Positions 9,844 through 46,058 are shown, counted from the stretch's first letter. The stretch is 51,028 nt of DNA from an uncultured Acidimicrobiia bacterium (GCA_964594235.1 CAZQMF010000006.1:1-51028), one strand, 5' to 3'. The notes: a model not told the origin generated them from the letters alone. A program made the numbers and translations.

Positions 9844-9997
9844 GGCTGGTGACTGTTCGCTGCTCGCGAAGCGAGCCTTGCTTTCGGCTGCTTCGTCTGC
9901 CCGCGCAGTAGGGGAGGGTTTCTCGTTTTGGGGGTTTCGGTCGCGCTCTGGCGGTGAGCTGTTGGCTGTCGGCTGTTCGCTGCTAGCGAAGCGAGCC
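9844..9997. repeat. Heptamer-array/hairpin-cap repeat, copy A (two units)
   Basis: 25-nt direct repeat CTGTTCGCTGCT[C/A]GCGAAGCGAGCC at 9853 and 9973 (120 bp apart), each preceded by GGCTGTN-type heptamers. Confidence 0.85.
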
Positions 9998-10053
9998 GGG
10001 TGGGCCCCCAGCCCCTTTTTGGGGATGTTGGTGAAGGAAGTGGGCTGAATGAG

Positions 10054-10094
10054 TTGACATGTGGCGCGGAATGGGTCATAGTGGCGCGCAGTGG
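10054..10094 (+). promoter_or_regulatory. dcw promoter with overlapping MraZ boxes
   Basis: TTGACA (10054-10059), 17-bp spacer, CATAGT (10077-10082); GTGG/ATGG boxes at 10061, 10071, 10081, 10091 with exact 10-bp period upstream of mraZ. Confidence 0.82.
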
Positions 10095-10127
10095 AGGACC
10101 GTAGATGCAATTGTCGGAGACTGGGCC

Positions 10128-10559
10128 GTGTTCCTCGGTGAATACCGGCACACCCTCGACCCGAAGGGGAGAGTCGTGTTGCCCTCGGATTTCAGGCCCG
10201 AGCTCGCCGAGGGTTGTGTCATCACCAAGGGACAGGAGCGATGCCTCTACGTCTACCCCCTCGCCCGATGGGCGCAGGAGGTGGAGGAAATGAATCTCCT
10301 GTCCCGCAAGGACGAGAACGTCCGCTTCTACCGACGTGCGGTCTACTCGGGAGCGAGGCAACAGTTGCTGGATGCTCAGGGTCGTGTGATGGTGCCCGAG
10401 CAGCTCAGAGCATACGCGGGCCTCGAACGCGACGTCGTGGTGATCGGTGTGGCGGACATGATTGAAATCTGGGATCAGGAGTCGTGGGACGAGTTCTCGA
10501 AGAGCGCCGACGAGTACTACGCATCGATAAAGGAGGGATTCACGGAAGAGAGGGCGTAG
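10128..10559 (+). CDS. mraZ: Division/cell wall cluster transcriptional repressor MraZ
   Basis: FLGEYRHTLDPKGRVVLP and LDAQGRVMVP (two DxxGR motifs), IEIWD; 143 aa from GTG at 10128. Confidence 0.96.
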   Translation: MFLGEYRHTLDPKGRVVLPSDFRPELAEGCVITKGQERCLYVYPLARWAQEVEEMNLLSRKDENVRFYRRAVYSGARQQLLDAQGRVMVPEQLRAYAGLERDVVVIGVADMIEIWDQESWDEFSKSADEYYASIKEGFTEERA

Positions 10560-10572
10560 ACGCGTCTGGTGT

Positions 10573-10654
10573 ATTGCCAGCCCCCCGGAACCATGAGGAA
10601 AGCCCCTTACTCCGCCCGCTTCCCATTGGTGCCAGCGCCCGGGGGGCTGGCAAT
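10573..10654 (+). ncRNA. Cis-regulatory hairpin resembling the mraW RNA motif
   Basis: Perfect 16-bp stem ATTGCCAGCCCCCCGG/CCGGGGGGCTGGCAAT with extended inner pairing and a CTTCCC tract, between mraZ and rsmH. Confidence 0.65.
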
Positions 10655-26568: not shown

Positions 26569-26789
26569 CTCGCTGCGCTCGCGGTCTTCGGTCTTCAGTC
26601 ATCGGTCTGCTGCACGCGGCCGCATCTATTGCGAGAGGTCAGGGCGGCTGGACTTGCACGTCACAGCTGCGTTTCTTGCTGGGAACTGACGATCCGTCGG
26701 GACGAAGGAGCCGTCATGCCAACTCAGATCGCGTCGCTTCTCACCGAGAACCGATGACCGACAACCGAGAACGGCTCGCGAAGCGAGCC
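26568..26789. repeat. Heptamer-array element with inverted arms, copy B
   Basis: Left arm GCTCGCTGCGCTCGC-GGTCTTC-GGTCTTC-AGTCATC-GGTCTGC; right arm ACCGAGA-ACCGATG-ACCGACA-ACCGAGA-AC-GGCTCGCGAAGCGAGCC; between convergent divIVA and ileS. Confidence 0.85.
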
Positions 26790-26790
26790 C

Positions 26791-29955: not shown

Positions 29956-30020
29956 GTGGACTCCGCATCGTAGACGGAAGGTGTCCGGAAACCGACCCAG
30001 CTGAGGTTCACTGTGTGAAC

Positions 30021-30132
30021 CGTCTTCGGTTTTGGGTTGTCGGTAATCGGTAAGACGATCGTCTGCCGGTTCGAGTCGCTCGAAGTCGCGTGCTGAAGGC
30101 TGTCGGCTGTCGGCTGTGAGCCGTCCGCTTTG
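30021..30132. repeat. Heptamer arrays, copy C (both subtypes)
   Basis: CGTCTTC-GGTTTTG-GGTTGTC-GGTAATC-GGTAAGA (30021-30055) and TGCTGAA-GGCTGTC-GGCTGTC-GGCTGTG-AGCCGTC-CGCTTTG (30091-30132). Confidence 0.8.
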
Positions 30133-31304: not shown

Positions 31305-32221
31305 ACACGAGTATCGGCCCCGAGTTGGCAGGCGAACGCATCGACAAGGTCGTTTCGATCCTTGCCGGGCTGAGTAGACGAGTGGCGCGGACACTGGTCG
31401 AATCGGGGGACGTGCTCGTCGATGGAACCACCATGTCACCGAAGGATCGGGTGGTAGGCGGCGAACGGGTCTCGATCCGCATACCCGTCGAGCAGACACT
31501 CGAACCCGAGGATGTCTCATTCGGTGTCTGCTACGAGGACGAGAACGTCGCGGTCATCGACAAACCGTCGGGCGTCGTTGTCCATCCAGGCGCGGGCGTC
31601 AGTCGCGGAACCCTCGCTGCCGGCCTGCTCCATCGATGGCCACAACTCGAGGGCGTCGGCGTGAAAGACCGGTGGGGGATCGTGCATCGGCTCGATCGGG
31701 ACACGTCAGGGCTACTCCTCGTCGCACTGACCGAGGAGGCCTACCGGTCACTGACCGATGCGATGGCTGAGCGATCCGTCAAGAGGACCTACCGGGCCCT
31801 CGTCGAGGGGCTGTTCTCACTACCTGCCGGAACGGTCGACGCTCCGATCGGGCGCGACCCCCGAAACCCGAGACGGCGGGCCCTCCAGCGCGATGGCAGA
31901 CCTGCCCGGACGCACTACCGGCGGCTCGCCTCATGGGACGGGCCCAACCTGAGCCTTCTCGAGGTGCAGCTCGAAACCGGACGGACGCACCAGATAAGGG
32001 TGCACATGGCATCGATCGATCATCCGGTGGTCGGCGACACCATGTATGGAGGACAACCGTCCGAGCGTCTATGGCTACATGCCGTGGCGTTGTCGTTCAT
32101 GCACCCTGTGCGCGGCGAAGAGATCACCGTGACGTCCCCACTGCCCGACGAACTCCGTGGTCTGCTGGACGAACTGGGCGAGCCGGACGTCGGGGCGGTG
32201 GATCAGCCCCAGAACACCTGA
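31301..32221 (+). CDS. rluD: RluA/RluD-family 23S rRNA pseudouridine synthase
   Basis: S4 domain, DKPSGVVVHP, VHRLDRDTSGL, LETGRTHQIRVH; GTG overlaps the lspA stop. Confidence 0.9.
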   Translation: MNTSIGPELAGERIDKVVSILAGLSRRVARTLVESGDVLVDGTTMSPKDRVVGGERVSIRIPVEQTLEPEDVSFGVCYEDENVAVIDKPSGVVVHPGAGVSRGTLAAGLLHRWPQLEGVGVKDRWGIVHRLDRDTSGLLLVALTEEAYRSLTDAMAERSVKRTYRALVEGLFSLPAGTVDAPIGRDPRNPRRRALQRDGRPARTHYRRLASWDGPNLSLLEVQLETGRTHQIRVHMASIDHPVVGDTMYGGQPSERLWLHAVALSFMHPVRGEEITVTSPLPDELRGLLDELGEPDVGAVDQPQNT

Positions 32222-33228: not shown

Positions 33229-34382
33229 CAGTACAGGAACATCGGTTTGCCGGACACGTGACGAACCTTAGGTCGGTAGGCCTCGGCGTTGTACAGCTCT
33301 TCGACGTCGACCCGCTTGACGCCCTCGCGAGTGACGCTGATCGGTACGCTCGTGTACGTGCCGCCCCGCAACGCCACCATGCGACCGGACGCGCCTTCGA
33401 GCGCGAGATCTGCCGCCATGACCGCGTAGTTGGTGGCGACCATCAGGTCCAGCGAGTCTGGGTTTCCCGACCTCATGAGGTAGCCGACCTGCTGGTAGAC
33501 GATTCCGAGGCCTGTCTTCTCCTTGAGGAGTTCGCCGGTCAGGGCGCCGATGCCTCCGAGCTTGCGGTGCCCGAACATGTCGGCGTCACCAGAGAGCACC
33601 ATGTCTCCGCCGCTGATGGTTGCTCCCTCGGAGATCGTCATCATCGCGTAGTTGCTGGGGTTGCGTCGACGATCCTCCAGAAGCAACCCCGCGAGTTTGT
33701 CGAGGTCGAACGGCACCTCGGAGATGATTGCCCTGTCGACACCCGCTAGGTAGGCCGTGATCAGGGACGTCTCTCCGCTGTATCGCCCAAACAGCTCAAC
33801 GACCGCCAACCGCTCGTGCGACCCGGCCGACGTACGGAGGTTGTGGATGAATTGGACCCCTCTCGTCACGGCCGTCGAGAAGCCGATGCAGTAGTCGGTG
33901 CCGTGCACGTCGTTGTCCATCGTCTTCGGGATCGCGATGACCGGAACGCCTTCGTCGTGCAACCTCAGGCCGTACGACAACGTGTCGTCGCCTCCGATGG
34001 GGATGAGAACGTCGATGCGTTGTGCCTCGATGACATCGAGCACGTGCGGTGTGAAGTCGTGAGGCCCGTCTCCCTCTGCGAGATCGGAGAGGAACGATGG
34101 GACGTCGCTCGTCGGGACCTTCCCGGGGTTCGTGCGCGACGTGTGCAGGAACGTCCCGCCGGTTCGGTCAACCGTCCGAACTCGTGCCCTGTCGAGAGGG
34201 ATCAGGTAGCGGGACAGGTCCTCCGGTTCGTCCAGATTGTGTTCGAGCAGCCCTGCCCAGCCTCTCCGAATACCGATGACCTCGTGGCCCTCGTCGCTGA
34301 CCCGGTCGACGACCGCCTTGATGCACGGGTTCAGACCGGGGACGTCTCCTCCACCGGTGAGAATGCCGATTCGCATGGTCAT
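33228..34382 (-). CDS. PfkA-family phosphofructokinase with PPi-type signature
   Basis: [35 protein letters not shown]. Confidence 0.88.
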
Positions 34383-34498
34383 CCCTTCTCGTAGACATCG
34401 ATGAAGTGCCGGAGTCTCGCGACGATGTCGGGCGCGGTGCCATTGCGGCTGATCTTCTTCTCGAAGCCGCGATCAAGACTGTGAGGGTTCGCGTTCAC
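34379..34498 (-). CDS. Small 39-aa ORF translationally coupled to the PPi-type PFK
   Basis: AAGGAG SD, 5 nt, GTG; (M)[38 protein letters not shown]; mostly G/C third positions; stop overlaps the pfk ATG (ATGA). Confidence 0.55.
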
Positions 34499-34595
34499 GC
34501 ACACTCCTTGCACCATGAGTGCACCATGCTACCCACCGATCAGGTCGGCAAGGGGCTTGGCTGGTATGGTTCGAATCCCACTGATGTAGTTCTTC

Positions 34596-37500
34596 ATGGA
34601 CGGTTTCGCACACCTTCATCTTCACACCGAGTTCTCGATGCTCGACGGCGCCGCACGGGTGCACGACGTCGTCCGTGCCGCTCGTGAGGACGGCCAGCCG
34701 GCGGTCGCGATCACCGACCACGGAGTTCTATACGGCGTTGTGGACTTCTACCAGGCGGCCCGCAAGGAGGGGATCAAGCCGATCATCGGTGTCGAGGCGT
34801 ACGTCACGCCCGGATCGCGGTTCGACCGGCCGCCGAGAAACAAGAACATCCGCTACCACCTCACGCTGCTCGCAGAGAACGAGACGGGGTATCGCAACCT
34901 GATGAAATTGGTGAGCCGGTCGTACCTCGAGGGCTACTACTACAAGCCGAGGATGGACTTCGATCTGCTCGCCGAATACAGCGAAGGGATCATCGCCGGA
35001 TCAGGATGTCTCGGTGGTGAAGTCGCACAGATGCTCGCCCCTGATGCGTCTCAAGAGGAAGGCAACCAGGGGCAGGTGCGCGACTTCGACGCCGCGCTGA
35101 CCGCCGCCGCCAGGTACCAGGAGATCTTCGGCAGGGACAACTTCTTCATCGAGTTGCAAGATCACGGCATCGAGGCACAGCGACGTGTCCTTCCCGATCT
35201 CGTGGATGTCGCTCGCCGTATCGGCGCTCCACTGCTCGCCACGAATGACTCGCACTACACGAGGCGTCAGGAAGCCGACGCTCACGACGTACTCCTCTGC
35301 ATCCAGACGGGTGCGACGATCAACGAACCCAACAGGCTCAAGTTTCAGGGTCAGGAGTTCTATCTGAAGACGTCGCAGGAGATGCGATCGCTGTTCCCGG
35401 ACGACCTGTATCCGGGTGCCACCGACAACACGCTGCTCGTCGCAGAACGGGCGAACGTGGAGCTGAGATTCGGGGAGATTCTGCTACCGCACTTTCCGGT
35501 GCCGGAGGGCACCACGGAGGCGTCCTATCTGCAAGACCTGGTGTACGAGGGTGCCCGCTCGCGGTATGGGGATCCTCTCCCCGTGGAGGTCGTTGACCGA
35601 ATCGAGCACGAGCTTCGCACCGTCCGGGAGATGGGGTTCCCCGCATACTTCCTCATCGTATGGGACCTCATCCGATACGCCAGAGAGAACGCGATCAGGG
35701 TGGGCCCGGGACGGGGGAGCGCCGCAGGGTCGATCATCTCATACTGCCTGCACATCACGGACATGGATCCGATCCGCTATGGCCTCATCTTCGAACGGTT
35801 CCTCAATCCGGGTCGTAGGGAGATGCCCGATATCGACATGGACTTCGACGAGCGGTACCGGTCAGACGTGATCAAGTATGCCGCCGAACGGTACGGTTCC
35901 GACCACGTCGCCCAAATCATCACGTTCTCCACCATCAAGGGCCGCCAGGCACTGAGAGACTCGGCGAGAGTGCTCGGCTTTACGTACGGGTTTGGGGATC
36001 GAATCGCCAAGATGATGCCTCCTGCGATCCTCGGGGTGGAGGCTTCGCTCACCCAGTGTCTTGAAGACCCCGGCAAGGGCGCCGATCCCGCGCTCCGCGA
36101 CTTCTACTCGAATGGTGCGCAACTTCGGGCCGTCTATCAGCAGGAGGAAGACGCACGCAAGGTCATCGATACGGCGCGGGGGCTCGAAGGGCTTCGACGC
36201 CAGGATTCCATCCACGCAGCAGCGGTGGTCATCTCTCCGGAGCCCCTCTGGAACCTGGTGCCCCTCCAACAGAAGGGCGAGGGGGCGGAGATCGTCACCC
36301 AGTACGAGATGAACGGAGTTCAGGACCTGGGCCTTCTGAAGATGGACTTCCTCGGGCTTCGGAACCTCTCGACGATCGAGAGATCACTCGAGCTGATCGA
36401 GCAGTCGACGGGGGAACGGATCGATATCGACTCGGTCCCTCTCGACGACGAGGCAACGTTCGAGATGATCCGGGCTGCCGACACGATCGGGGTGTTCCAA
36501 CTCGAAGGGTCGGCGATGCGGGCCCTCATTCGCGCGCTCCAGCCTGAGAGCTTCGACGACATCATCGCCGTCAACGCCTTGTTCAGACCTGGCCCGATGG
36601 GCGTCAACATGCACTACGAGTACGCAGATCGCAAGAACGGCCGCAAGCCGGTGGAGTATCCACATCCGGCGACCCAGCCCTTCCTCGAGTCCACCTACGG
36701 GATCATCGTGTTTCAGGAACAGGTGATGCAGGTGGCTCAGGCGCTCGCCGGGTACACGATGGCCGAGGCGGACAACTTCCGCAAGGCAATGGGCAAGAAG
36801 GTGAAGTCGATCATGGCCAAGGAGCGCAGCAAGTTCGTTGCAGGCTGCGCCGGGCAGGGCCACACGGAGCAGCTCGGCAAGGAACTGTGGGATGCGATCG
36901 AACCGTTCGCCGGGTACGGATTCAACAAGCCGCACAGCGCCGCGTACGGCTTTGTCGCGTACCAGACCGCATGGCTGAAAGCTCACTACCCGGCCGAGTA
37001 TTTGGCCGCGCTGCTCACATCAACGAAACGAGACAAAGACCGGACCTCCCTGTACCTGAGCGAGTGCCGGATGCAAGGCATCGAGGTGGTCGTTCCCGAC
37101 ATCAACCGTTCCGAACTCGACTTCTCAGTGCGGGATGGCCGGATCGTCTTCGGCATGTCGGCGGTACGCAACGTTGGGGAGGGAGTCGTCGAGCGAATCC
37201 TCGATGCGCGCCGTGAGGGAGGGGAGTTCAAGGACTTCATCGACTTCGTCGACCGTGTGGACGTGTCGGTGCTCAACCGGCGCACCATCGAGTCACTGAT
37301 CAAGGCGGGCGCATTCGACAGCCTCGGAGTGACACGACGGGGGCTGATCCTGTCCTACGAACAGATACTGGACGCCACGGTCACTCGACGTCGCAACGAA
37401 GAAATGGGGCAGTACTCGTTGTTTGGCGGGGCGTCGTCTCCGGTCGAGGTCGCTCAACCTGACATTCCCAACCTCGAGTGGGACAAGAAGGTGCGACTCG

Positions 37501-38099
37501 GGTTCGAGAAGGAGATGCTCGGGTTGTTCATCTCGGACCATCCGCTCCTGGGGATCGAGCACCTTCTCAACCGTGTGGTCAGCTCCACGATCCCCGACCT
37601 GTGGGACATGCAGGACACATCGACGGTGACCGTCGGAGGTCTCGTGGGGTCGATCAATCGCCGGTTCACACGCAAAGGTGAACCGATGGTGTTCTTCGAG
37701 CTCGAAGACCTCGAGGGGTCGGTGGAGGTCGTTGCGTTCCCCAAGGTCGTGTCACTGGCGGGACCGATGATCCGGGAGGACGCCGTCGTCGTCGTGACGG
37801 GGCACCTGGACCATCGCGGCGACGACATCAAGGTGATCGCCCGTGAGATCTCCGAGCCCGAGCTCCGTTCCGACCAGGTCGTGCGGCTCCGGGTACCGGC
37901 GCTCCAGATCTCACCAGATCTGGTGACTCGCCTCCAGCAGGTGCTCGCGAATCATCCCGGGTCGGCGCCGGTGTTCCTCGAGATGACGTCTGACAGCGAA
38001 CCGAAGGTGTGGAAGCTCTCGGACGAGTACCGGGTCGAGCCTCGAAGCGCACTCTACGCAGAGCTCAGGGAGCTGCTGGGGGCCAAAGCGGTCACGTAG
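34596..38099 (+). CDS. dnaE: DNA polymerase III alpha subunit
   Basis: HLHLHTEFSMLDG PHP domain, GPGRGSAAGS, PDIDMDF, KMDFLGL, YGFNKPHSAAY; 1167 aa, no intein apparent. Confidence 0.97.
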   Translation: MDGFAHLHLHTEFSMLDGAARVHDVVRAAREDGQPAVAITDHGVLYGVVDFYQAARKEGIKPIIGVEAYVTPGSRFDRPPRNKNIRYHLTLLAENETGYRNLMKLVSRSYLEGYYYKPRMDFDLLAEYSEGIIAGSGCLGGEVAQMLAPDASQEEGNQGQVRDFDAALTAAARYQEIFGRDNFFIELQDHGIEAQRRVLPDLVDVARRIGAPLLATNDSHYTRRQEADAHDVLLCIQTGATINEPNRLKFQGQEFYLKTSQEMRSLFPDDLYPGATDNTLLVAERANVELRFGEILLPHFPVPEGTTEASYLQDLVYEGARSRYGDPLPVEVVDRIEHELRTVREMGFPAYFLIVWDLIRYARENAIRVGPGRGSAAGSIISYCLHITDMDPIRYGLIFERFLNPGRREMPDIDMDFDERYRSDVIKYAAERYGSDHVAQIITFSTIKGRQALRDSARVLGFTYGFGDRIAKMMPPAILGVEASLTQCLEDPGKGADPALRDFYSNGAQLRAVYQQEEDARKVIDTARGLEGLRRQDSIHAAAVVISPEPLWNLVPLQQKGEGAEIVTQYEMNGVQDLGLLKMDFLGLRNLSTIERSLELIEQSTGERIDIDSVPLDDEATFEMIRAADTIGVFQLEGSAMRALIRALQPESFDDIIAVNALFRPGPMGVNMHYEYADRKNGRKPVEYPHPATQPFLESTYGIIVFQEQVMQVAQALAGYTMAEADNFRKAMGKKVKSIMAKERSKFVAGCAGQGHTEQLGKELWDAIEPFAGYGFNKPHSAAYGFVAYQTAWLKAHYPAEYLAALLTSTKRDKDRTSLYLSECRMQGIEVVVPDINRSELDFSVRDGRIVFGMSAVRNVGEGVVERILDARREGGEFKDFIDFVDRVDVSVLNRRTIESLIKAGAFDSLGVTRRGLILSYEQILDATVTRRRNEEMGQYSLFGGASSPVEVAQPDIPNLEWDKKVRLGFEKEMLGLFISDHPLLGIEHLLNRVVSSTIPDLWDMQDTSTVTVGGLVGSINRRFTRKGEPMVFFELEDLEGSVEVVAFPKVVSLAGPMIREDAVVVVTGHLDHRGDDIKVIAREISEPELRSDQVVRLRVPALQISPDLVTRLQQVLANHPGSAPVFLEMTSDSEPKVWKLSDEYRVEPRSALYAELRELLGAKAVT

Positions 38100-38102
38100 G
38101 TC

Positions 38103-38207
38103 GACCTTCGGTCGCCGGTCTGAGTTCTGGGTTGTGGGTTCTGAGTAGGACACATGCTCCGAGAAGTGTCAGAGGTCGCGTTCCTACTGATGATTGATGG
38201 CCGAAGG
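38103..38207. repeat. Heptamer-array element with inverted arms, copy D
   Basis: CCTTCGGTCG...AGTTCTG-GGTTGTG-GGTTCTG-AGTAGGA pairs with TCCTACT...GATGGCCGAAGG; immediately after the dnaE TAG. Confidence 0.75.
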
Positions 38208-38212
38208 GCTAC

Positions 38213-38295
38213 GTTGGGGGGAACGGCCCCCTCCGGCGTCGAGCATCAGCTCGACGCCACCTCCCCCAACACTCGCTTCGCTCGCGAGGGGAGGA
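38213..38295. repeat. REP/RIME-like nested palindrome
   Basis: Perfect 10-bp stem GGCGTCGAGC-ATCA-GCTCGACGCC flanked by GTTGGGGG/CCCCCAAC, then CTCGCTTCGCTCGCGAGGGGAGGA. Confidence 0.65.
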
Positions 38296-38315
38296 AACGG
38301 GCGGGTGAAGCCCTC

Positions 38316-39323
38316 TCAGGTGAAGAGCCGATCGAGGTCCAGACCGACTGCCGAGTCGATCATGAGCTCGAGTTTCTCCAGATCGCTTGGTGTCTGGGGT
38401 TGCCAGGGGATCGTTGCCGGTTCGACATGCCACCTGGCCGAGAACCGGTGGCGGGCTTCCGCCTGGCGGTGGGCTTCCGTTCCCCAACGAACGAGGTTGT
38501 CTCCGAACGGTGAGGGGGCAGCGGACGTGGGGTGATACCACGACTCCGGGAGGACGCGGTTGAAAACGACGAACTCGGGTGGCCCGTTCTCGAGTTCGAA
38601 GAACTTGGCGGCCTCACTGAGCGGCGCGGGGTCGGCAGTTGTGACGACGACTTTGTGGGCGGTGGAGAGATGACGTTCGATCTCGCGACTGCGCTCGGCG
38701 ATGCCGTCGTAGGCAGCCCGCAAGTCGATGAGGAAGTCGGCGACGGCCTCGAGCAGCTCGGATCCGAGCGCTGCATCGGCGATCCGCAGGGCAGGGCGCG
38801 CCGTGAACCGATACACGAGTCTGCGTCCAGGCAGTGAGCCGCCGGTGAGCCATTTGAGGAGTCGGCCACCGATCAGGGAACGCATTCGAGCAGGAGATGT
38901 GAAGAACTCGATGCCGCCTGCAGACGGGGGAGTGTCGACCAGAATCACATCCCACTGGCCGCTCTCGATGTGAATCGTCATCTCCTCCGCCGCGGCGAAC
39001 GACTGCGAGGCGGGGAAGTGCTGAGTGGCGGCTTCGAAGAACGGATTGGCCGTCAGTCTCGGCCCTACGTCGGGTGGCGCGTACCGTGTTGCGATGTCAT
39101 TCCACGATCGGGTTGCGTCCAGCATCGCCCCCCACAGGTTGTCGGCGAGGGGGGTGGGGTCCGAACCTAACCCATCCAGTCCGAGCGCCGATGCCAGCCG
39201 CTTCGCAGGGTCGATCGTCACCACCAGTGTTGTGAGCCCCCTGCCGGCTGCCGCCAGGGCCAGACCGGCCGACAGTGTCGTCTTGCCGACGCCGCCACCC
39301 CCGGTGATCAGCACGGCGCTCAC
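38316..39323 (-). CDS. ArsA/GET3-family ATPase (BagB/Rv3680-like subunit)
   Basis: ITGGGGVGKTT, VTIDPAKRLASALG, VDTPP; GTG at 39323 overlaps the upstream stop. Confidence 0.87.
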   Translation of the reverse strand: MSAVLITGGGGVGKTTLSAGLALAAAGRGLTTLVVTIDPAKRLASALGLDGLGSDPTPLADNLWGAMLDATRSWNDIATRYAPPDVGPRLTANPFFEAATQHFPASQSFAAAEEMTIHIESGQWDVILVDTPPSAGGIEFFTSPARMRSLIGGRLLKWLTGGSLPGRRLVYRFTARPALRIADAALGSELLEAVADFLIDLRAAYDGIAERSREIERHLSTAHKVVVTTADPAPLSEAAKFFELENGPPEFVVFNRVLPESWYHPTSAAPSPFGDNLVRWGTEAHRQAEARHRFSARWHVEPATIPWQPQTPSDLEKLELMIDSAVGLDLDRLFT

Positions 39324-40168
39324 GGCATCCCCCAAAGATCGGCCATCCGGGCCGCCACCTCGGGAGGGGTGTGCAGACCGAAGAAGTAGGGGACTCGCGG
39401 ACCGTCGGGGAGGCGGGCTATCCAGCGCTCCTGCTCGTCGAAGAGCGCATTGTGCAGCAGTGCAGCCTGCTTCGCCGGCCCATCGCTCAAGCCGTCGACG
39501 TCGCCGTCGAGTGGATCCAGCGTGCGGTTCACGATGACGTTCTCGACGCCGATGAGGTTCTCTTCATCGATGGCCGCGAGGCTCTCGATCGTTTCGGTCA
39601 CCGGAAGCTCCTCTGCCGTCGTGACTACGGTCAAGCCGGTCGTGGATCTGTCCCTCAGGAGTCGAATCATCCAACCTGTTTGATCGAGCACCCTTCCCGC
39701 TCCAACGAGCCGCGCCACCGTGGTGGGCGCACGAAGGTGTGAGCCGATTTGGCCCGTGGGCGGTCCATCAGCCACGACGAGGTCCCAGGTGCCTTTCTTG
39801 GTCTCGTAGAGAACCTTGCCGATCGTGATGACTTCACGGATCCCCGGAGCCGTGGAAGCAAGGGCGTCGAACGCGCGCGCAAGCGGTCCGAGCTGCGCGA
39901 TCCGCGGCACGCCGAGCTGTACCCGGAGGTACTCGTTGAGTGCTTCGGGGCGTTCGATGACCATCGCATCGAGTCCCGATTTGATGTGTGTCGGTCGGTA
40001 GCGCAGGTGCTCTATGCCGAGGTGCATTGCGAGACCGGTGTCGTCGGTCATCGCCATCGCAAGCACACGTTTGCCATCGAACGCAGCCCTCAGCGCGAGT
40101 GCAGCGGTCACCGCGGACTTACCGACTCCACCCTTGCCGGTGACGATGAGCAACCGCTTGTCGACCAC
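39320..40168 (-). CDS. ArsA/GET3-family ATPase (BagA/Rv3679-like subunit)
   Basis: IVTGKGGVGKS, APGIREVITIGK, DGPPTGQ, EELPVTET; TACCCT-N6-GTG start. Confidence 0.87.
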   Translation of the reverse strand: MVDKRLLIVTGKGGVGKSAVTAALALRAAFDGKRVLAMAMTDDTGLAMHLGIEHLRYRPTHIKSGLDAMVIERPEALNEYLRVQLGVPRIAQLGPLARAFDALASTAPGIREVITIGKVLYETKKGTWDLVVADGPPTGQIGSHLRAPTTVARLVGAGRVLDQTGWMIRLLRDRSTTGLTVVTTAEELPVTETIESLAAIDEENLIGVENVIVNRTLDPLDGDVDGLSDGPAKQAALLHNALFDEQERWIARLPDGPRVPYFFGLHTPPEVAARMADLWGMP

Positions 40169-40243
40169 CTGACAAGGGTAGCGGCGGTACCGGTAGCCTC
40201 TTCCGTCGGGCCGCACGGTACCCTCGCGTCCAAGGAGGTTCGC

Positions 40244-40456
40244 ATGGCCGAGTTCGACGTCGACGAGTTCATCAACCGATTCCAGGAGCGGGCGCGCGCC
40301 GTCAAGGCGAGAGGTCTCCCGCCCGTGGCCGGTCCGGAGCGTGCTGCACTGATCGCACAGGCAGAGCGTGACTACATGGACTTCGCACTGGTGGGGGCGG
40401 CGTCGTGGACGGTCGACGGCAACTCACTGGTGTTGACAATCCCCTTGAAGCCTTAG
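40244..40456 (+). CDS. Small hypothetical protein (70 aa)
   Basis: AAGGAGG SD; MAEFDVDEFINRFQERARAVKARGLPPVAG...LVLTIPLKP. Confidence 0.75.
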   Translation: MAEFDVDEFINRFQERARAVKARGLPPVAGPERAALIAQAERDYMDFALVGAASWTVDGNSLVLTIPLKP

Positions 40457-40586
40457 GCTCACTTCGCTCGCCGTTGTCGGTTGTGAGTTCTCGGTTCTCG
40501 GGGAGACAGCGGTCCGGGCCGTTCGCGGAGTCCGATCGAGCCTCCTACTGAAAACCGAGAACCGAAGACCGAGAACTGGCGGAGCC
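40457..40586. repeat. Heptamer-array element with inverted arms, copy E
   Basis: GCTCACTTCGCTCGC-CGTTGTC-GGTTGTG-AGTTCTC-GGTTCTC-GGGGAGA ... TCCTACT-GAAAACC-GAGAACC-GAAGACC-GAGAACT-GGCGGAGCC; fills the gap between two convergent TAG stops. Confidence 0.85.
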
Positions 40587-42194
40587 CTAGGTGTTTCGCC
40601 GCCTCTGTTCTGCCCGCCGTTCGCTCTCGAGGCGTTCGAGATCGGTACTCGAGTAGTCGACGTACGACATGGCGTCTGCGATGAGGTGATGCCCGGCCAC
40701 GTCCCGAATCTGTCGGTGCATCTCCTGGGCTACTCTCCGATACCCGACGTGACCGGCGGGCTGGCTCCGCAGCTCGATGAGATGGAATGCCTCTCTGGCG
40801 TTCATCTCCATGACGAAGCGGATCTTGTAGCCGAAGGGAACGACGTACTGGGCGACGGTCGATGACGTCGCAGCCTCGACATCGCTATGGAACGAGGCAG
40901 CTCGAGACATGGCCCGTTCCCAATCTGTTGCCAGATTCGTCTCGACGAGGTCGTCGGGGACGTCGTATCCGTGGGTGGTGGTGAGTTCCTGCCAGTCGAT
41001 GGTCAGCATCCTGTGGCGTTGGAGGTCGCGGAAGGCTCCGTAGTCGCACAGCACGTCGAACCGGTAGGCGGGACGTTCCATCGCCCGCCCGGGACGGTGA
41101 CGACGGTTGGTCCTGTCGCCCACCAGTGCCTCGATCACCGTCGCCCGTTCCTGCCTGGACATCGCTCGTGCGATCTCGAGCAGCGTCGAGTCGGCAAGCT
41201 TTGTGTGCGGGTACAGGGCAGCGGCGACGAGTTTCACTTCGGCGTCGGGATCCCAGTCGGTCAGAGTGACGAGCGGCAGCTTGTCCGTGCTCACCGCGAT
41301 CCGGTCGGCGATCTGTCCCACTGCTCGTCGAGTGTTTGCGAGGTACGTGCTCCATGCCACACCGCGGTCATCGACATCGACCCGCTTGAGGAACGACGGG
41401 ATCACTTTCCGCAGTTCGGAGAGCATCAACGCTCCGTACTCGCGTACTTCTTCAAGCGGGTGCGCCTGCATCCTCAACAGCGCCATTTCGTACGCCTGCC
41501 CGGAGGCGAAGATTCCGACGTTGGAGAGTGTCGATGCGGGAAGGAGACCCCGTGCCGTGTCGCACGCCTTCGCTCTGATAGTGGCTTTCCAGACCCGTTC
41601 GGGATCGTCCCCTCGTGGGAATCGATCCGCATACACGTCGGTCATCGTCCGAACCACTTTCGAGTACGTGTCGAACAGCAGATCCATGGTGGCTCGATGG
41701 CGCCGGCCCAGGCCGGCCCTTTCGATCTCCGGCGGGGTCATGTATCGGTAGCGGTCGCCGAACCTGCTGTCGTAGTAGATGTACCGGGTGGACTGTTCGA
41801 GGTAGGAGGCGAGCCGACCCCACTCCAGGACCTTCGTCAGTACGTTGGAGGCCTGCTCGCACGCGATGTGCGCACCACCGAGTTGGGCAACCGAGTCGTC
41901 GCCGAACTCGAAGAACACCCGGTCGTACAGCTTTTCCGCTCTTCTCAGGCTGTACAGCGGATCACCTTGGATGCGCTGCGCGATCGTTTCGATGCCCGTG
42001 TCCGCTTCGTTGAGGAACTCATCAAGGAAGAGTCGCCGAAGCGACTTGCCGCTTCTGCTGTAGCGTGCGAAGAGTGCTCCTTTGACGACCTCGGGGAGGT
42101 TCAGGAGCGTGAAGACCGGCTTGTCGACGTTGCTGAAGAATCGCGAGAGCACCCGGGTCTCGTCGTCGGTGAACGGCTCTCGGTAGAACTCCAC
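40587..42194 (-). CDS. thyX: FAD-dependent thymidylate synthase, tandem two-domain type
   Basis: ALFARYSRS, FGDDSVAQLG, SYLEQSTRY, RGLLP (domain 1); FRDLQRHR, MNAREAFHLIELRSQPAGH (domain 2); TACAAT-N7-GTG start. Confidence 0.88.
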   Translation of the reverse strand: MEFYREPFTDDETRVLSRFFSNVDKPVFTLLNLPEVVKGALFARYSRSGKSLRRLFLDEFLNEADTGIETIAQRIQGDPLYSLRRAEKLYDRVFFEFGDDSVAQLGGAHIACEQASNVLTKVLEWGRLASYLEQSTRYIYYDSRFGDRYRYMTPPEIERAGLGRRHRATMDLLFDTYSKVVRTMTDVYADRFPRGDDPERVWKATIRAKACDTARGLLPASTLSNVGIFASGQAYEMALLRMQAHPLEEVREYGALMLSELRKVIPSFLKRVDVDDRGVAWSTYLANTRRAVGQIADRIAVSTDKLPLVTLTDWDPDAEVKLVAAALYPHTKLADSTLLEIARAMSRQERATVIEALVGDRTNRRHRPGRAMERPAYRFDVLCDYGAFRDLQRHRMLTIDWQELTTTHGYDVPDDLVETNLATDWERAMSRAASFHSDVEAATSSTVAQYVVPFGYKIRFVMEMNAREAFHLIELRSQPAGHVGYRRVAQEMHRQIRDVAGHHLIADAMSYVDYSSTDLERLESERRAEQRRRNT

Positions 42195-42242
42195 CGGCCG
42201 GATTGTACCGGGAGCCATTCTGCGGGCGGGTACCCTATCGGC

Positions 42243-42539
42243 ATGGTCTGGCTTCGTGCGCTCATGGCCCTGCTGCTCGCCGCGGTTCTTGTTGTCGCGG
42301 TCGTGCCACTCGTCGTTCTCTTCAACTTGTCGGGCGGTGGGACCGGGTACGGTGTCTGCCCTCACGGGCTGGCGTCGTGCGAGGTGAGCTACACGCGAGG
42401 GCTTGAATTGCTGCTGGTTCTGATCGTCTTCCTATTCCTGCTGCTTGCTGCGATCCGTGTCGTGGCACGAGGCATGCGGCACATTCGAAGAGAACAAGAG
42501 CTGGACGAGGCGGTCCGCAGGCTCAATGGGCAGGCGTGA
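42243..42539 (+). CDS. Small two-TM membrane protein with a Cys pair in the loop
   Basis: MVWLRALMALLL...GTGYGVCPHGLASC...LLLVLIVFLFLLLAAIR; TACCCT-N6-ATG. Confidence 0.72.
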   Translation: MVWLRALMALLLAAVLVVAVVPLVVLFNLSGGGTGYGVCPHGLASCEVSYTRGLELLLVLIVFLFLLLAAIRVVARGMRHIRREQELDEAVRRLNGQA

Positions 42540-43413
42540 TAGCTTCGGCGGCCGGGATCGTGTCCATTTCACTCGTGCGAGCCAACACGAGGTAGATACC
42601 TGCCAGGATCAGCGCAGCGCCCGTCCACTGTTTCGCATCGAGTCGCTCCGCGAGGAGTAGCGCTGCGAGAAGCGTCGCCGAGACGGGCTCCAAGGTCAGG
42701 ACGACGGCCGTTCGGGCTGGTCCGATCACCGTCTGTGACCACACCTGCATGAGGAAGGCTCCCGCGGTCACGATGAGTCCCGTCATCAACAGCGCGGGTA
42801 TGACATCGATGGTGGGCAGGGGGATACCTTCGGTGATCCATGACAGGGAAGTCGCGAGGACGGCGGTGACGAGGAGCTGGACCGCCGTGAAAGGAACGAC
42901 AGGGTGGCGGGCAGCAACCCGCGAGAGGACCACGATGTGGGCGGCGAACGCCACCGCACACCCAACGGTGAGCAGGTCTCCCGCATCGAATCTGACTCCT
43001 TCGCGGATCGTCAGGAGGGCGAGCCCGACGAACGCAACGCCGGTTCCTGACACCGCCCACCCGGAGAGCTTCGTGCGAGCGACGACGGCGGCGATGATCG
43101 GCGTGAACACCACGTACAGGCCGGTGATGAGTCCCGAATTGGCCGCGCTCGTCAACGCCAGTCCCTCCGTCTGGAACGCGTACCCGGCGAACAGCAGTGT
43201 CCCGGCGATCACCCCGTCTCGCCAGACCGACCGACCCCGTGGAAACGCCAGGGCGAAGAGTGCGACGGAGCCGATCAAGAACCTCCAACCGACGAACGCG
43301 AGCGGCGGTATGAGTGTGACCGCCTGCTTGACGACCACGAACGTCGCACCGAACAGACACGCAGCCACGACCAGGGCGAGGTAGGCGAGGGTCCGGCGCC
43401 GTTCGGGGGGCAT
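42523..43413 (-). CDS. EamA/DMT family transporter
   Basis: About 10 TM; FGATFVVVK, RFLIG, FQTEGL, GDLL, LEPV; start coupled to the xpt stop. Confidence 0.9.
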   Translation of the reverse strand: MPPERRRTLAYLALVVAACLFGATFVVVKQAVTLIPPLAFVGWRFLIGSVALFALAFPRGRSVWRDGVIAGTLLFAGYAFQTEGLALTSAANSGLITGLYVVFTPIIAAVVARTKLSGWAVSGTGVAFVGLALLTIREGVRFDAGDLLTVGCAVAFAAHIVVLSRVAARHPVVPFTAVQLLVTAVLATSLSWITEGIPLPTIDVIPALLMTGLIVTAGAFLMQVWSQTVIGPARTAVVLTLEPVSATLLAALLLAERLDAKQWTGAALILAGIYLVLARTSEMDTIPAAEAITPAH

Positions 43414-43976
43414 CAGTCGACGAATTCGATGGTGTCGTTGTCGAGCGAGCCGATTCTGACGATCGACAGGATCGGCCACCCGTGCCTCGTGAGGAGGTCC
43501 CGTCCGCCGAAGGACACTTTCTCTATCACGAACCCCGCCGCAACGACGACGCCACCGGCATCCTCGACGATCTCGCCGAGTGCTTCAGCGGTCCTGCCGC
43601 GCGCAAGGAAGTCGTCTACCACGGCAACCCGCGCGCCCGCGTCGAGAAGATGGTCCGCTACCTCGACTCGATACTCCATTCCCTTCGTTGGTGACGACAC
43701 GGTTCGGCCGTACGAGTTCGGGCGAGGGTCACCGACGAACTTCTTTGCGTAGATGAACGGCAGTCGCATCTGTGAGGCGGCTGCCATCGCCGGGGGTATG
43801 CCGCTGGCTTCCGCCGTGAGCACCAGGTCCGGCCGGTAGGGGATCAGATGCGTTGCCAGAGCCGCCCCGATCCCGCTCATCACGGTCGTGTCGACCTTGT
43901 GGTTGAGAAAGGTGTCGACCATGAGCAGGTCGCCTTTGATGCGCCCTTGCTCCCTGATGACGGCTCGCAGATTCAT
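43413..43976 (-). CDS. xpt: Xanthine phosphoribosyltransferase
   Basis: VDTFLNHKVD, LTAEASGI, PRPP loop VVDDFLARG, IEK. Confidence 0.85.
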   Translation of the reverse strand: MNLRAVIREQGRIKGDLLMVDTFLNHKVDTTVMSGIGAALATHLIPYRPDLVLTAEASGIPPAMAAASQMRLPFIYAKKFVGDPRPNSYGRTVSSPTKGMEYRVEVADHLLDAGARVAVVDDFLARGRTAEALGEIVEDAGGVVVAAGFVIEKVSFGGRDLLTRHGWPILSIVRIGSLDNDTIEFVD

Positions 43977-44019
43977 GTCGGGCGATAGTAGCTATCGGAG
44001 CCACCGCTACGATCGCCCC

Positions 44020-44649
44020 GTGGACGAACGAGCACTCGACATCCTGCACCGACTCGAACGCCGCTATCCGTCGATAGGAACGGCGCTCCGTTACCACGAT
44101 CCTTGGCAGCTGCTCGTCGCGACGGTGCTCTCGGCTCAGACCACCGACGACACGGTCAACAAAGTCACCCCTGTGCTGTTCCGGACCTATCCCACGGCCG
44201 AGGATCTCGCGAACGCAAACCCGGAGGATGTCGAGAAGATCGTGTTCACGACCGGGTTCTTCAGGCAGAAGACCAAGGCGATCATCGGGCTGTCCCAGGC
44301 GCTGGCGGAACGATTCGGAGGTGTGGTGCCCTCGGACCTGGAAGAGCTGGTGACGCTGCCGGGTGTCGGCCGCAAGACAGCCAGCGTCGTGCTGGCAGAG
44401 GCCTTCGGTGTGCCTGCCATCGCCGTCGACACACACGTCAAGCGGCTATCGAACCGGTTGGGGTTCACCACCCAGAAGGACCCCACCAAGATCGAACAGG
44501 ACCTGAAAGATCTGTTTCCCGAGTCGTCGTGGGGTGGGCTGTCGATGCGGCTCATCCAGTACGGCCGCGACGTCTGCATGGCGAAACGACCCAACTGCCC
44601 CGAATGCGAACTCGCCGACGTGTGCCCCTTCCCAGATAAAACGGAGTAG
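44020..44649 (+). CDS. nth: Endonuclease III
   Basis: LLVATVLSAQTTD, LPGVGRKTA (HhH), VDTHV, C-X6-C-X2-C-X5-C; TACGAT-N6-GTG. Confidence 0.95.
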   Translation: MDERALDILHRLERRYPSIGTALRYHDPWQLLVATVLSAQTTDDTVNKVTPVLFRTYPTAEDLANANPEDVEKIVFTTGFFRQKTKAIIGLSQALAERFGGVVPSDLEELVTLPGVGRKTASVVLAEAFGVPAIAVDTHVKRLSNRLGFTTQKDPTKIEQDLKDLFPESSWGGLSMRLIQYGRDVCMAKRPNCPECELADVCPFPDKTE

Positions 44650-44775
44650 GCGGCCTTTGCCCGCCGTTGTCGGTTTTCGGTCGTGAGTTTTCGGTAGAAC
44701 CTTCGCCCTGCGGTCTTGCGCCGCGTTCGGCCGCGAACTGATAACTCAGAACCGAAAACCGCGAGTGCAGCTCGC
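44650..44775. repeat. Heptamer-array element with inverted arms, copy F
   Basis: CGTTGTC-GGTTTTC-GGTCGTG-AGTTTTC-GGTAGAA ... GATAACT-CAGAACC-GAAAACC-GCGAGTGCAGCTCGC. Confidence 0.82.
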
Positions 44776-44793
44776 TGGCTACGCTCCCGGCTC

Positions 44794-46038
44794 ATGATCG
44801 ACCGCCTCATGAAGCTCTCTCGGTTCGTCAGACCGCCGATCCCTCCGGTGAGGTCCGACGTCCGGATCGTGTCGCTGACAGCGGTCATGGCCTACGTCCA
44901 GGGCTACGCCTTCGCCCAGGCGGCCAACAACGTCCCGTTCGTCCGCCACGCCCTCGGCGAGACAGCAGCGCAAATGAGCCTGCTTCTCGCCCTCACCCGG
45001 ATGGGAGCCATCGCCGCCGTCGTGCTCTCCCTTGTCGGTGACCGGGGCGGACGCCGAAGGATTCTGTTGTTCTCCTTTGGGATGATGGCTCTGGCGAGCG
45101 CTGCCACCGCCACGGTCAACACGGCGCTCTGGTTCACGGTCTGGCAGTCGATCACCCGCATGACGGGCTCGGCGGTGTCGGTACTGGCACTGGTGATCCT
45201 CGCCGAAACGCTGCAGCCAGGACTGCGCGCGTATGGCATCGCCGTGTTTGGGGCCGCGGCGAGCTTCGGCGCCGGATCGGCGCTCGTCGCCGTACCCATC
45301 AACGACCTCGGTCCGAACATGTGGAGGGTGCTGTTCGCGGCAACCCTCCTCGGGTTGCTGGCGTTCCCGGCGCTGGCAAAGAGGGTGGGGGAGAGCCCAC
45401 TCTTCGAGTCGGGCGGCATCGGGCCCGTACTGTGGGCTCCGCTCCACGGGAACGCCATCAGGCGGTTCTGGCCGATCGCGGCGATATCGTTCCTCGCGGC
45501 GGCCTTCGCCGCGACGGCGTCGTCATTCTCGGTGGAACGACTCGTCGAAGATCTCGGGCTGTCGACAACAGTCGCCGTGCTGATCCTTGCCGTCGGCGGG
45601 ACGGTCGGTGGAATCGGCTTCTTCGCCGGCGGACGCCTTGCGGACACCTGGGGCCGCCGTCCCACGACCGTGATGGCTCTTCTATCGGCCGGGATCGGGG
45701 GTGTCGGCATGTACCGTCTCGGGTCCCCTGGTCTCCTCGTGCTTGCTGCTGCACTCTCGGGGTTCGGAGCGTTCGCGATCGTTCCATCACTCGGCGCGCT
45801 GCGCAACGAGGTGTTCCCGACCGGCATTCGAGCGACAGCGGCCACCTGGCTCAACTCGGCAGGCGTCGTCGGCGCAGTGTCCGGACTGGCCGCCGGCAAG
45901 TACCTGATCGGCAACTTCGGTCTCTCGACAACCGTCACCCTGCTCTCGGTCGGGATGGCGATCGCGGCCCTCCTCGTGACACTGGTGCCGGAAACGAAGG
46001 GCCTGCACCTCACCTCGGACGTCCCACCGATCGCCTGA
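44794..46038 (+). CDS. MFS transporter
   Basis: About 12 TM; GDRGGRRR and GRLADTWGRRP motif-A repeats, EVFPTGIR, PETKG. Confidence 0.9.
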   Translation: MIDRLMKLSRFVRPPIPPVRSDVRIVSLTAVMAYVQGYAFAQAANNVPFVRHALGETAAQMSLLLALTRMGAIAAVVLSLVGDRGGRRRILLFSFGMMALASAATATVNTALWFTVWQSITRMTGSAVSVLALVILAETLQPGLRAYGIAVFGAAASFGAGSALVAVPINDLGPNMWRVLFAATLLGLLAFPALAKRVGESPLFESGGIGPVLWAPLHGNAIRRFWPIAAISFLAAAFAATASSFSVERLVEDLGLSTTVAVLILAVGGTVGGIGFFAGGRLADTWGRRPTTVMALLSAGIGGVGMYRLGSPGLLVLAAALSGFGAFAIVPSLGALRNEVFPTGIRATAATWLNSAGVVGAVSGLAAGKYLIGNFGLSTTVTLLSVGMAIAALLVTLVPETKGLHLTSDVPPIA

Positions 46039-46058
46039 GCTGTCGGCTGTCTGCTGTC
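46038..46058. repeat. Short heptamer array, copy G
   Basis: AGCTGTC-GGCTGTC-TGCTGTC directly at the MFS stop. Confidence 0.55.

Follow-up and report, generated by a model that had tools for sequence, protein, structure and literature searches.

The window, meaning the whole stretch of DNA that was analysed, comprises 51,028 nt of an uncultured Acidimicrobiia bacterium (GCA_964594235.1 CAZQMF010000006.1:1-51028). It contains seven heptamer-array copies (A-G), all of which were verified at the coordinates given in an earlier note on this DNA. Each copy is intergenic and lies between ordinary genes (usp/mraZ, divIVA/ileS, ileS/DUF167, dnaE/arsA-like, unnamed/thyX, nth/MFS and MFS/ccdA-like, respectively). 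The arms of the window copies use the two heptamer alphabets that the note had described, type-1 (approximately GGTTNTC) and type-2 (approximately GGCTGTC); a third alphabet (type-3, SGTAYCT), missing from that description, is found elsewhere in the genome and not in the window. A full element consists, in order, of a cap hairpin, 3-4 heptamers with a terminal heptamer, a ~37-bp core, a facing arm and a cap.

Copy F (44650..44775, + strand) is located 3' of nth (TAG 44647-44649) and is composed of a cap (44650-44664), a type-1 arm (44665-44692), a terminal heptamer, a canonical core (44700-44732), a type-1 arm (44733-44760) and a cap (44761-44775). With a core-only model, copy F scores clearly (10.8 bits), copies B and C score weakly, and copies D, E and A1 do not score. 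Copy E (40457..40586, + strand) is placed between the two convergent TAG stops of the unnamed gene and thyX and contains a cap, a type-1 arm (40472-40499), a terminal heptamer, a core, a type-1 arm (40543-40577) and a short cap. Copy D (38100..38204, + strand), 3' of dnaE (TAG 38097-38099), contains a cap, a type-1 arm that ends at 38143, a terminal heptamer (38144-38150), a 31-bp core and a degenerate right arm. A second repeat family ('type II'), inserted in copy D at 38210..38313 with no strand assigned, occupies 38210-38298 and is followed by the right cap (38299-38313) at the arsA-like stop. The type II repeat resembles hairpins seen on either side of DUF559 genes in the family, and its end motif, which is also found at DUF559 flanks, has 35 copies versus 1 in a Markov control.

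Copy B (26569..26790, - strand) fills the space between divIVA (TAG 26566-26568) and ileS (stop 26791-26793) with a cap, a type-1 arm (26583-26610), a composite 135-bp interior, a type-1 arm (26746-26773) and a cap (26773-26789). Copy C (30005..30132, + strand), between the divergent ileS and DUF167 genes, has mixed arms and contains a hairpin cap (30005-30021), a type-1 arm (30021-30048), a terminal heptamer, a weak core and a type-2 arm (30088-30129). The two-armed form assigned to copies B, D, E and F was borne out, but the list was short because copy C is also two-armed (type-1 left, type-2 right). Copy A is formed by two same-sense type-2 right arms with one cap each. A1 (9829..9877, + strand) has a degenerate B-end motif, a short type-2 arm that reads inward on the - strand and a cap hairpin (9862-9876) with a GAA loop on the + strand. 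A2 (9930..9997, + strand), upstream of the mraZ promoter region, has a B-end motif, a type-2 arm (9947-9988) and a cap (9982-9996) with a GAA loop. Copy G (46035..46062, - strand) is a solitary type-2 arm that overlaps the MFS stop codon (46036-46038).

The window copies are members of a large family in the genome that holds the window (G000), where ~335 heptamer arms fall into three alphabets and cores occur at 97 loci (~100 copies). The family extends beyond the window and far above background: 206 type-1 arms exceed a threshold that 10 windows of a Markov control pass, and the doubled GGTTNTC unit occurs 45 times versus once in an order-5 Markov genome. Intergenic arrays of period 7 number 195 (6 of them N runs) compared with 7-19 at each of periods 4-6 and 8-11. 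Neighbouring arms face each other in 70 pairs and diverge in 5. The cores, which the note had called unrelated, proved to be a single polar family genome-wide, with 84 core HMM matches at E<=1e-3 versus none in the Markov control, a modal length of 37 bp and an occurrence common to most arm pairings. The modal arm has four units and a terminal heptamer. G2 and Y3 of the heptamer are near-invariant at period 7 across all three alphabets and position 5 is free. The copies are true members of a ~100-copy intergenic hairpin family with 7-base repeats.

The family is concentrated in one genus. Matches to the element pattern number 76, 19, 5, 106 and 82 in the five genomes of the genus, compared with 0-2 in the other family genomes and none in 41 other genomes of the order. 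In 401 genomes of the class, the B-end pattern has 1-3 matches each outside the genus, nearly all with a mismatch.

G000 was compared with four relatives (G001-G004, of which G004 is a congener) and, at one junction, a further relative (G005). The element sites are fixed, and their contents change. At 478 orthologous junctions of G000 and G004, 416 are empty in both genomes, 56 are occupied in both and 6 are occupied in one, so that 56 of the 62 element-bearing junctions are common to the two. Similarly, among 233 junctions of G000 and G003, 21 are occupied in both and 5 in one (21/26 common). The contents of 44 of the 56 co-occupied junctions differ (21 rewritten and 23 different in type), and 12 are retained at an identity of at least 0.84. 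At one site, a single core is accompanied by different arm alphabets in relatives, and some of the 44 differences concern the alphabet of an arm or the presence of a DUF559-type hairpin. Such turnover is also seen at the window copies. The copy B site is 0.90 identical in G003 and holds a DUF559-type hairpin in G001 and G004; the copy D site carries complete type-1 elements in G001 and G003; the copy E site is near-identical in G003 and reduced to a short remnant in G002; and the copy F site is 0.94 identical in G003, with type-2 arms in G004 and type-3 arms in G001. Copy G is also present in G003 and G004, and copy A2 is missing from the orthologous site in G003.

Retained copies are ~0.93 identical, and position 5 is identical in 49 of 52 cases among these copies, which were chosen at an identity of at least 0.84, versus 0.52 at four-fold sites. 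This odd conservation is also compatible with a selected host function. The codons next to retained copies showed no co-conversion, which would have pointed to transfer by homologous recombination. In contigs of four sequencing runs, none of the window copies had a well-supported empty allele; no target-site duplication was evident at the one-sided sites inspected in the junction comparison, and neither a replacement event nor an intermediate was observed.

A link to a known protein family is provided by genes for the four-helix-bundle protein (TIGR02436/PF05635), which are found between convergent heptamer arrays in congeners, in family members and in many phyla. Across phyla, period-7 arrays flank 54 of 91 PF05635 loci on both sides (one is an N run), compared with 0-4 at control periods, and the two arrays are inverted-similar in 47 of the 54. 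A full-length PF05635 gene lies between type-1 arms on contigs 96.8% and 97.1% identical to contig C92 of G000. A further contig has ~504 unlike letters at the loaded site, and one short gene-less form was also seen. The junction between VUT and clpC is loaded in near relatives of G000, in G002 with type-1 arms and in G001, where the gene is frameshifted, with type-2 arms; in G005 it is gene-less and holds a type-3 arm and a cap. No four-helix-bundle gene was found in the window, G000, G003 or G004, an absence that is uninformative because the locus lies past the contig end in G000 and G003 and was not found in G004. Other cargo between facing arms, in G000 and part of G004, consists of ordinary-looking genes or nothing. 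These loci support the suggestion that the copies are empty cassettes for four-helix-bundle genes, and the search for genes enclosed by arrays found the four-helix-bundle gene in relatives; DUF559-type hairpins occur in the same slots. The window copies are likely a gene-less form of a cassette for a small ring-forming protein.

The cores show no significant likeness to the leaders of 17 loaded cassettes. A derivation of the core from a cassette leader fused to the right arm was rejected, as none of the 17 leaders clearly beats 100 shuffles (best 7/100); simple deletion from a present-day loaded cassette does not account for the core. G.U polarity (17 vs 19) and GNA caps (1 vs 3 of 108) were rejected as general features of loaded cassettes from a comparison with other phyla.

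The elements are polar, and the two strands are predicted to fold differently. When elements are oriented by the core alone, the arm at the A end (not to be confused with copy A) carries G1/T4 and that at the B end carries A1/C4 in 28 of 29 elements. Folding, which the note had also suggested, gave a divided result. The matched-arm copies E and F are predicted to fold with complementary ends as a long stem (z -3.0/-3.8 on the two strands for copy E), and, of the two strands, A-to-B has the lower folding energy in 37 of 43 elements; the mixed copy C has no end-to-end arm pairing, and Alifold on all 118 copies yields no structure. A consensus of 70 selected copies also has complementary ends in a long stem, and its folding is strand-specific (-39.7 vs -23.8). 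Pairing in the inner stem is 0.736 compared with 0.698 in shuffled controls, and changes on both sides of the stem number 26 versus 15. The top mutual-information pairs fall within arms, not across the stem, position 5 shows no covariation between arms (0.276 vs 0.255), and in Watson-Crick terms the match between the two arms of a copy (0.678) is hardly above the match with arms of other copies (0.660).

In 59 of 134 cases the cap reads C(TNC)G inward, equivalent to C(GNA)G in the outward direction, and the reversed sense is found in 16 of 134. Mini-hairpins of the GCGNAGC type have an unusual stability in DNA (PMC13037366). The favoured strand is sense 20 times and antisense 14 times at tandem sites, indicating that orientation is not tied to transcription. 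The A-to-B strand coincides with the inferred leading strand in 52 of 79 elements of G000 and 45 of 61 of G004 and, beside lagging-strand genes, is antisense in 14 cases versus 4. The bias weakens to 39/65 (p=0.14) and, pooled, to 58/92 (p=0.016) when orientation is taken from motifs only, and G000 alone is not significant. Orientation by HMM may absorb ordinary G/T mutational skew, and G000 and G004 have sites in common. Together, the DNA-type C(GNA)G cap loops, the one favoured folding strand and a modest bias towards one replication strand (60-70%, and less when the tests are stricter) are suggestive of replacement through single-stranded DNA.

The reading that we prefer, at a probability of about 0.5, is that the copies are gene-less polar elements, akin to the four-helix-bundle cassette, that are likely replaced where they stand, at fixed junctions and probably by way of a hairpin of single-stranded DNA, and do not jump to new sites. 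Elements and cassette use the same arm alphabets and caps, and they coincide at one site or more. The A-to-B strand, probably more often the lagging-strand template and exposed at the fork, would form a long hairpin in which each heptamer has one mismatch and which also contains an inner stem and, on the 5' side, a bulge. The phased arrays are putative binding tracks for a pentameric four-helix-bundle protein; PDB 2gsc has five chains, and five subunits would correspond to approximately five heptamers per arm. A nuclease, possibly a DUF559 protein with its own hairpins in the same slots, or host repair may then start copying from another copy, and retained copies may owe their persistence to selection or to passage between species that occur together. 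Against this reading stand the weaker bias under motif-only orientation, the lack of a general G.T asymmetry and of GNA caps in loaded cassettes of other phyla, the dissimilarity of core and cassette leaders, and mutual information that is highest within arms and not across the stem. A catalyst of replacement was not identified in the searches for a mobilising enzyme. Reverse transcriptase (PF00078) was found in none of the five genus genomes (77-96% complete), and TIGR04256 (GxxExxY) in none of 20 family genomes, the latter a weak negative because the control also fell below the cut-off in every genome. DUF559 gives two weak, partial matches in G000, and the flanks of the one inspected lack type-II hairpins.

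The elements could alternatively function as RNA modules at gene ends. They would then be stems that RNase III cuts as in an IVS, stabilisers of 3' ends or terminators; they would derive from the cassette, be kept by selection and change content by ordinary gene conversion between copies. Arm starts mostly 13-25 nt past a stop codon, the 31 of 81 loci between convergent genes (versus 112 of 686 gaps of at least 60 bp), the confinement of G.U-type pairs to one strand, the matched alphabets in 64 of 81 pairs (57% expected) and the identity of retained copies fit this explanation, as do the heptamers of the Coxiella IVS within an RNase III-cut region (PMC4990558). However, divergent genes border 16 of the 81 loci, the favoured strand does not follow the direction of transcription, and arms are mixed in 17 of 81 pairs, with copy C lacking end-to-end pairing. 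The RNA-processing or terminator module of the earlier note found little direct support: terminator-like sites in 26400-46300 number 9 versus 9.0 expected, two of which coincide with the copy F caps, and Rfam gives no match at gathering thresholds in the window and none at E<=1 in 26400-46300. The GNA caps, the divergent loci, the transcription-independent orientation and the replication-strand bias favour DNA over RNA, and the RNA explanation appears doubtful, at about half the weight of in-place replacement. Less probable still is that a host regulator or nucleoid protein binds the arms as arrays in double-stranded DNA, with the hairpin a by-product of facing arrays. The near-invariant G2/Y3 at period 7, the core length fixed near 37, the free position 5 and the tolerance of mixed arms agree with such binding, and paired sites in Geobacter have been read in this way (PMC2700814), but it leaves unexplained the one-strand G.T pairs in the core stem, the tie to the four-helix-bundle gene, the same-site alphabet swaps and the GNA caps.

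The least probable explanation, already largely refuted, is that a transposase with its gene elsewhere has carried a classical MITE or REP/REPIN family to new sites. The MITE/REP-like, non-autonomous element of the note survives in the word non-autonomous; the MITE/REP part fails because no Y1/RAYT gene (PF01797) occurs in 20 family genomes (13 at least 90% complete; control found in 6/14) and the sites are common to relatives rather than new. High copy number and expansion at the genus level would suit this explanation, and the caps presumably resemble REP hairpins. A TAG precedes the cap in 39 of 54 cases compared with 566 of 1853 stops, but the flanking TAGs are the genes' own stop codons at the sites checked. 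REP/REPIN units combine a tetranucleotide foot with a short hairpin, in inverted doublets; here the candidate foot coincides with stop codons and varies. In addition, the arms are degenerate arrays and not matched terminal repeats.

In-place replacement, the preferred reading, can be extended, speculatively and with rather low probability, to a selfish system in which gene-end slots with GNA mini-hairpin caps are overwritten at the fork by modular single-stranded cassettes, an Avd-like pentamer wraps approximately five heptamers, one per subunit, and exchange occurs even between species. The modules would be heptamer arms of several alphabets, the polar core, and a four-helix-bundle gene or DUF559-type hairpin. 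If true, the system would account for the long-standing 7-base repeat excess in bacterial genomes, for which slippage of the polymerase, G-quadruplexes and unidentified regulators have been invoked (PMC4692102, PMC4679880, PMC2700814). The genus is a compact test case, with ~100 copies, three alphabets, a defined core, stable sites with content turnover and one intact loaded PF05635 cassette, and it bears on the function of the widespread PF05635 protein family and on repeat turnover without a transposase.

Paired heptamer arrays (Geobacter, Xanthomonas) and heptamer-bearing rRNA IVSs are already in print; in the mostly open-access literature searched, no paper was found that joins the two or that joins four-helix-bundle genes to dispersed heptamer pairs. 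The strand-specific imperfect hairpin is analogous to those of REP/REPIN-RAYT, IS200/IS605 and integron attC (with the last, through a one-strand hairpin with a bulge). IS608 favours the lagging-strand template (PMC5027513). Unlike REP/REPIN and IS200/IS605, no Y1 enzyme was found here, and sites are rewritten, not gained. TAACTGA direct repeats of Beggiatoaceae, Cyanobacteria and Bacteroidetes are intergenic with 2-6 copies; these repeats are described upstream of start codons with a translational role, and the sections concerned give one inverted case only (PMC4679880). Compared with the present arms, their unit is a rotated reverse complement of AGTTATC, one of the type-1 heptamers. The Coxiella burnetii 23S rRNA IVS with an ORF (S23p/PF05635) places the same protein family in a terminal stem with tandem heptamers (PMC4990558). 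That IVS resides in rRNA and is excised by RNase III (PMC4990558), whereas the present copies lie at mRNA gene junctions, are gene-less, number ~100 per genome and have their own core. The window copies are all between protein-coding genes, and a PF05635 ORF in the loop, absent from the window and G000, is present in the loaded cassette of the 97%-identical contigs.

The GGGAATC heptamers of Xanthomonas and Nostoc share with the present family a preference for four units, ~70 convergent pairs per genome, a location near stop codons and 83% same-site occurrence between species despite much sequence change (PMC4692102). They are G-rich and read as G-quadruplexes, with no cassette link in the sections that describe them (PMC4692102), and the present arms lack G3 tracts. 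In Geobacter metallireducens, paired opposite-strand sites of 4-5 tandem hepta- or octanucleotides are described as 'putative global regulator binding sites' (PMC2700814). These are likewise intergenic facing arrays of 4-5 short units in several sequence classes per genome, and one Geobacter site is occupied by a different conserved sequence in a sister species (PMC2700814). The portion of that paper on these sites reads them as IHF/HU-type and describes neither a core family nor caps, no tie to four-helix-bundle genes and no systematic replacement in place. The present elements have the facing intergenic arrays of ~4-5 heptamers on opposite strands that define the Geobacter/Xanthomonas class, and they have arm alphabets and sites in common with loaded four-helix-bundle cassettes.

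Seven intergenic heptamer-array elements had been claimed for the window by an earlier note (copies A–G); all seven are found at their positions, and the family is judged to be real. The window is contig C6 of the genome under study (G000; 1.94 Mb, 155 contigs, 88% complete), which was assigned 1938 genes by a hexamer model, with names from NCBIfam and Pfam. A genome-wide scan with a position matrix over three consecutive heptamers identified 206 type-1 arms, far more than the 10 windows of a Markov-5 control at the same threshold. Intergenic arrays with a period of 7 number 195, including 6 N runs (other periods, 7–19). Of the neighbouring arm pairs, 70 are convergent and 5 divergent. The arms mostly comprise three to four units and a terminal heptamer; type-1 arms read inward as RGTYNTC and end in RGTARGA. 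Three alphabets are used: type-1 (198 arms), type-2 (AGCNSAC; 84 arms) and type-3 (SGTAYCT; 53 arms). Each has G as its second base and a pyrimidine as its third. The type-1 pattern occurs 76, 19, 5, 106 and 82 times in the five genomes of the genus, 0–2 times in each of 15 further genomes from the family and never in 41 additional genomes from the order. Its abundance is confined to the genus among the genomes scanned.

The cores between the arms, which had been taken as unrelated, instead align at genome scale as a single polar family (modal length, 37), whose A end carries TCGCCC and whose B end carries a GGTCGCG-type motif. G000 contains 97 distinct core-bearing loci at E≤0.01 (31 convergent, 34 tandem, 16 divergent and 16 at contig edges), none within called genes. 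A core-only model trained on type-1 pairs scores at least 3 bits in 84 of 135 facing pairs from G000 and fetched parts of its relatives G003 and G004, compared with 2 of 100 controls; such pairs cover six of the nine observed arm combinations. A short hairpin cap is often found outside each arm, and its loop reads C[TNC]G inward (C[GNA]G outward) in 59 of 134 cases versus 16 of 134 reversed. The arm mostly starts 13–25 nt downstream of a stop codon, which is TAG in 39 of 54 cases (genome-wide, 566 of 1853). Long non-standard interiors (135–220 bp; ∼0.9 identical between G000 and G003) at window 26611–26745 and C7:27229–27495 could be captured or functional non-coding sequence. Another genus of the family (L001–L003; genomes G011 and G006) has short mixed-arm elements of its own, with the same B-end motif as the G000 family and a different core. 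Other window genes include a tandem phosphofructokinase-family pair (32203–34382, − strand), an ArsA/GET3-like ATPase pair (38316–40216; best matches to mycobacterial BagA/BagB models, below cut-off) and a ThyX-family gene with two matched stretches (40587–42365; protein >500 aa).

The long stem predicted for 70 selected copies, all having a type-1 right arm, contains a single mismatch in each heptamer. It includes an inner stem of 8 bp and a 5′ bulge of 9 nt, and the folding value is −39.7 for the A-to-B strand versus −23.8 for the opposite strand. When the core alone sets the orientation, 28 of 29 elements have A arms rich in G1/T4 and B arms rich in A1/C4, which generates G·T pairs on the A-to-B strand; copies lying the other way round keep this asymmetry (A arms, 47:10 and 44:16). 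Paired arms have matched alphabets in 64 of 81 cases (57% expected) and mixed alphabets in 17. Mixed-arm copy C lacks end-to-end pairing in its predicted fold, and the pooled 118 copies yielded no consensus structure at default settings. Covariation in the inner stem of 72 G000 copies is modest and can be inflated by relatedness (pairing, 0.736 versus 0.698 shuffled; both-side changes, 26 versus 15), and heptamer position 5 exhibits none between arms.

The site comparison used 1.20 Mb of G004 (total about 2.0 Mb), 0.44 Mb of G003 and shorter stretches of the relatives G001 and G002; pattern matches guided the choice of the G001 and G002 sequence and of the initial G004 regions. At the window sites, caps mostly remain and interiors change. 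The arms at site F are type-1 in G000 and G003, type-2 in G004 and type-3 in G001, and site B is a type-II hairpin, from a second family, in G001 and G004. At C11:34643, the core is kept and both arms are changed. Of 62 element-bearing G000/G004 junctions, 56 are filled in both genomes, with the element retained at only 12 of these 56; 416 junctions are empty in both. Retained copies are ∼0.93 identical, even against G003, for which four-fold sites (0.51–0.52) and element-free intergenic regions (0.81) serve as yardsticks, and no co-conversion of their flanking codons was seen. Such identity would fit either strong selection or precise lateral exchange. Replacement can extend into the final codons of a neighbouring gene: nth (window 44620–44649) stops at a TAG that precedes the cap in G000, and at a TGA within a type-2 arm in both G004 and G002.

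Genes for a four-helix-bundle protein (TIGR02436) are present in 12 of 20 family genomes, and the 17 loci inspected border on, or are enclosed by, facing heptamer arrays in diverse alphabets. A set of 91 such loci, made up of the top 80 of 595 in a genome scan and 13 from the family after removal of 2 with short flanks, includes 54 with a period-7 array on each side, inverted-similar in 47. The VUT–clpC junction is loaded with such a gene in G002 and G001 and gene-less in genome G005. The G000 contig stops just short of this locus; in metagenome contigs that match the contig end at 96.8% and 97.1% identity, type-1 arms flank a PF05635 gene of full length. The four-helix-bundle gene at this junction is frameshifted in G001 (L006) and one metagenome contig (L246) and appears disrupted at its 5′ end in G002; L245 and L248 carry intact versions, a pattern that suggests repeated decay. 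The right arm contains the 3′ end of the intact gene. The proposal that window-type elements are gene-less relatives of this cassette and the proposal that their contents are replaced at stable sites each have a probability of about 0.85. The gene-less core as a fresh scar of a loaded cassette was ruled out: no derivation from the cassette leader is detectable, and the gene-less elements therefore represent a sister family.

DUF559 genes, presumably encoding a Vsr-like nuclease, match in 14 of the family's 20 genomes. Hairpins, some capped by GCGAAGC, flank several of the strong matches and resemble, by eye and in short motifs, the type-II element of copy D (38210–38298; end motif, 35 copies in G000 versus 1 in the control); a second cassette family thus seems to occupy the same slots. 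Type-II hairpins (38210–38298; L168–L177 and L182–L183) replace or insert into heptamer elements at common sites. A TG-TANNNT-like motif, frequently located by eye ∼10–17 nt 5′ of the start codon in both cassette gene kinds (L016–L033 and L168–L183), suggests leaderless promoters.

Our preferred reading, held at about even odds, is that replacement in place proceeds through a single-stranded DNA hairpin; it draws on the strand bias, the arm asymmetry, the loop type and precedent. The GNA loops are of the DNA type (PMC13037366), and IS608 offers a precedent for action on the lagging-strand template (PMC5027513). Element orientation is not tied to transcription (sense 20, antisense 14 at tandem sites). 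By HMM orientation, A-to-B is the inferred leading-strand sequence, and hence the inferred lagging-strand template, in 52 of 79 (G000) and 45 of 61 (G004) elements; beside lagging-strand genes, it is antisense by 14 to 4. Because the bias drops under motif-only orientation (39 of 65 and 58 of 92; G000 alone not significant), part of the replichore signal may be mutational skew. The phased arrays are likely bound by the four-helix-bundle protein, a candidate binder that is pentameric in PDB 2gsc and homologous to DGR Avd according to PMC10053308. As for mobiliser genes, PF01797 (Y1/RAYT) was found in 0 of 20 family genomes and PF00078 (RT) in 0 of 5 genus genomes; GxxExxY was found in 0 of 20 family genomes, with the control model also below cut-off everywhere.

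Assignment of the element as an IVS, REP or MITE was ruled out by the features checked for each, and the literature search found no paper joining heptamer arrays at gene junctions with four-helix-bundle cassettes. The present analysis adds the polar core common to copies with swappable arms, counts that set site stability against turnover of contents, an intact cassette in close relatives, caps with GNA loops and a tentative bias between replichores. The same architecture is reported, without explanation, for Geobacter paired arrays (PMC2700814) and Xanthomonas heptamer repeats (PMC4692102), and heptamers and S23p are reported together in one rRNA IVS (PMC4990558). The heptamer elements are a variant of this described but unexplained architecture.
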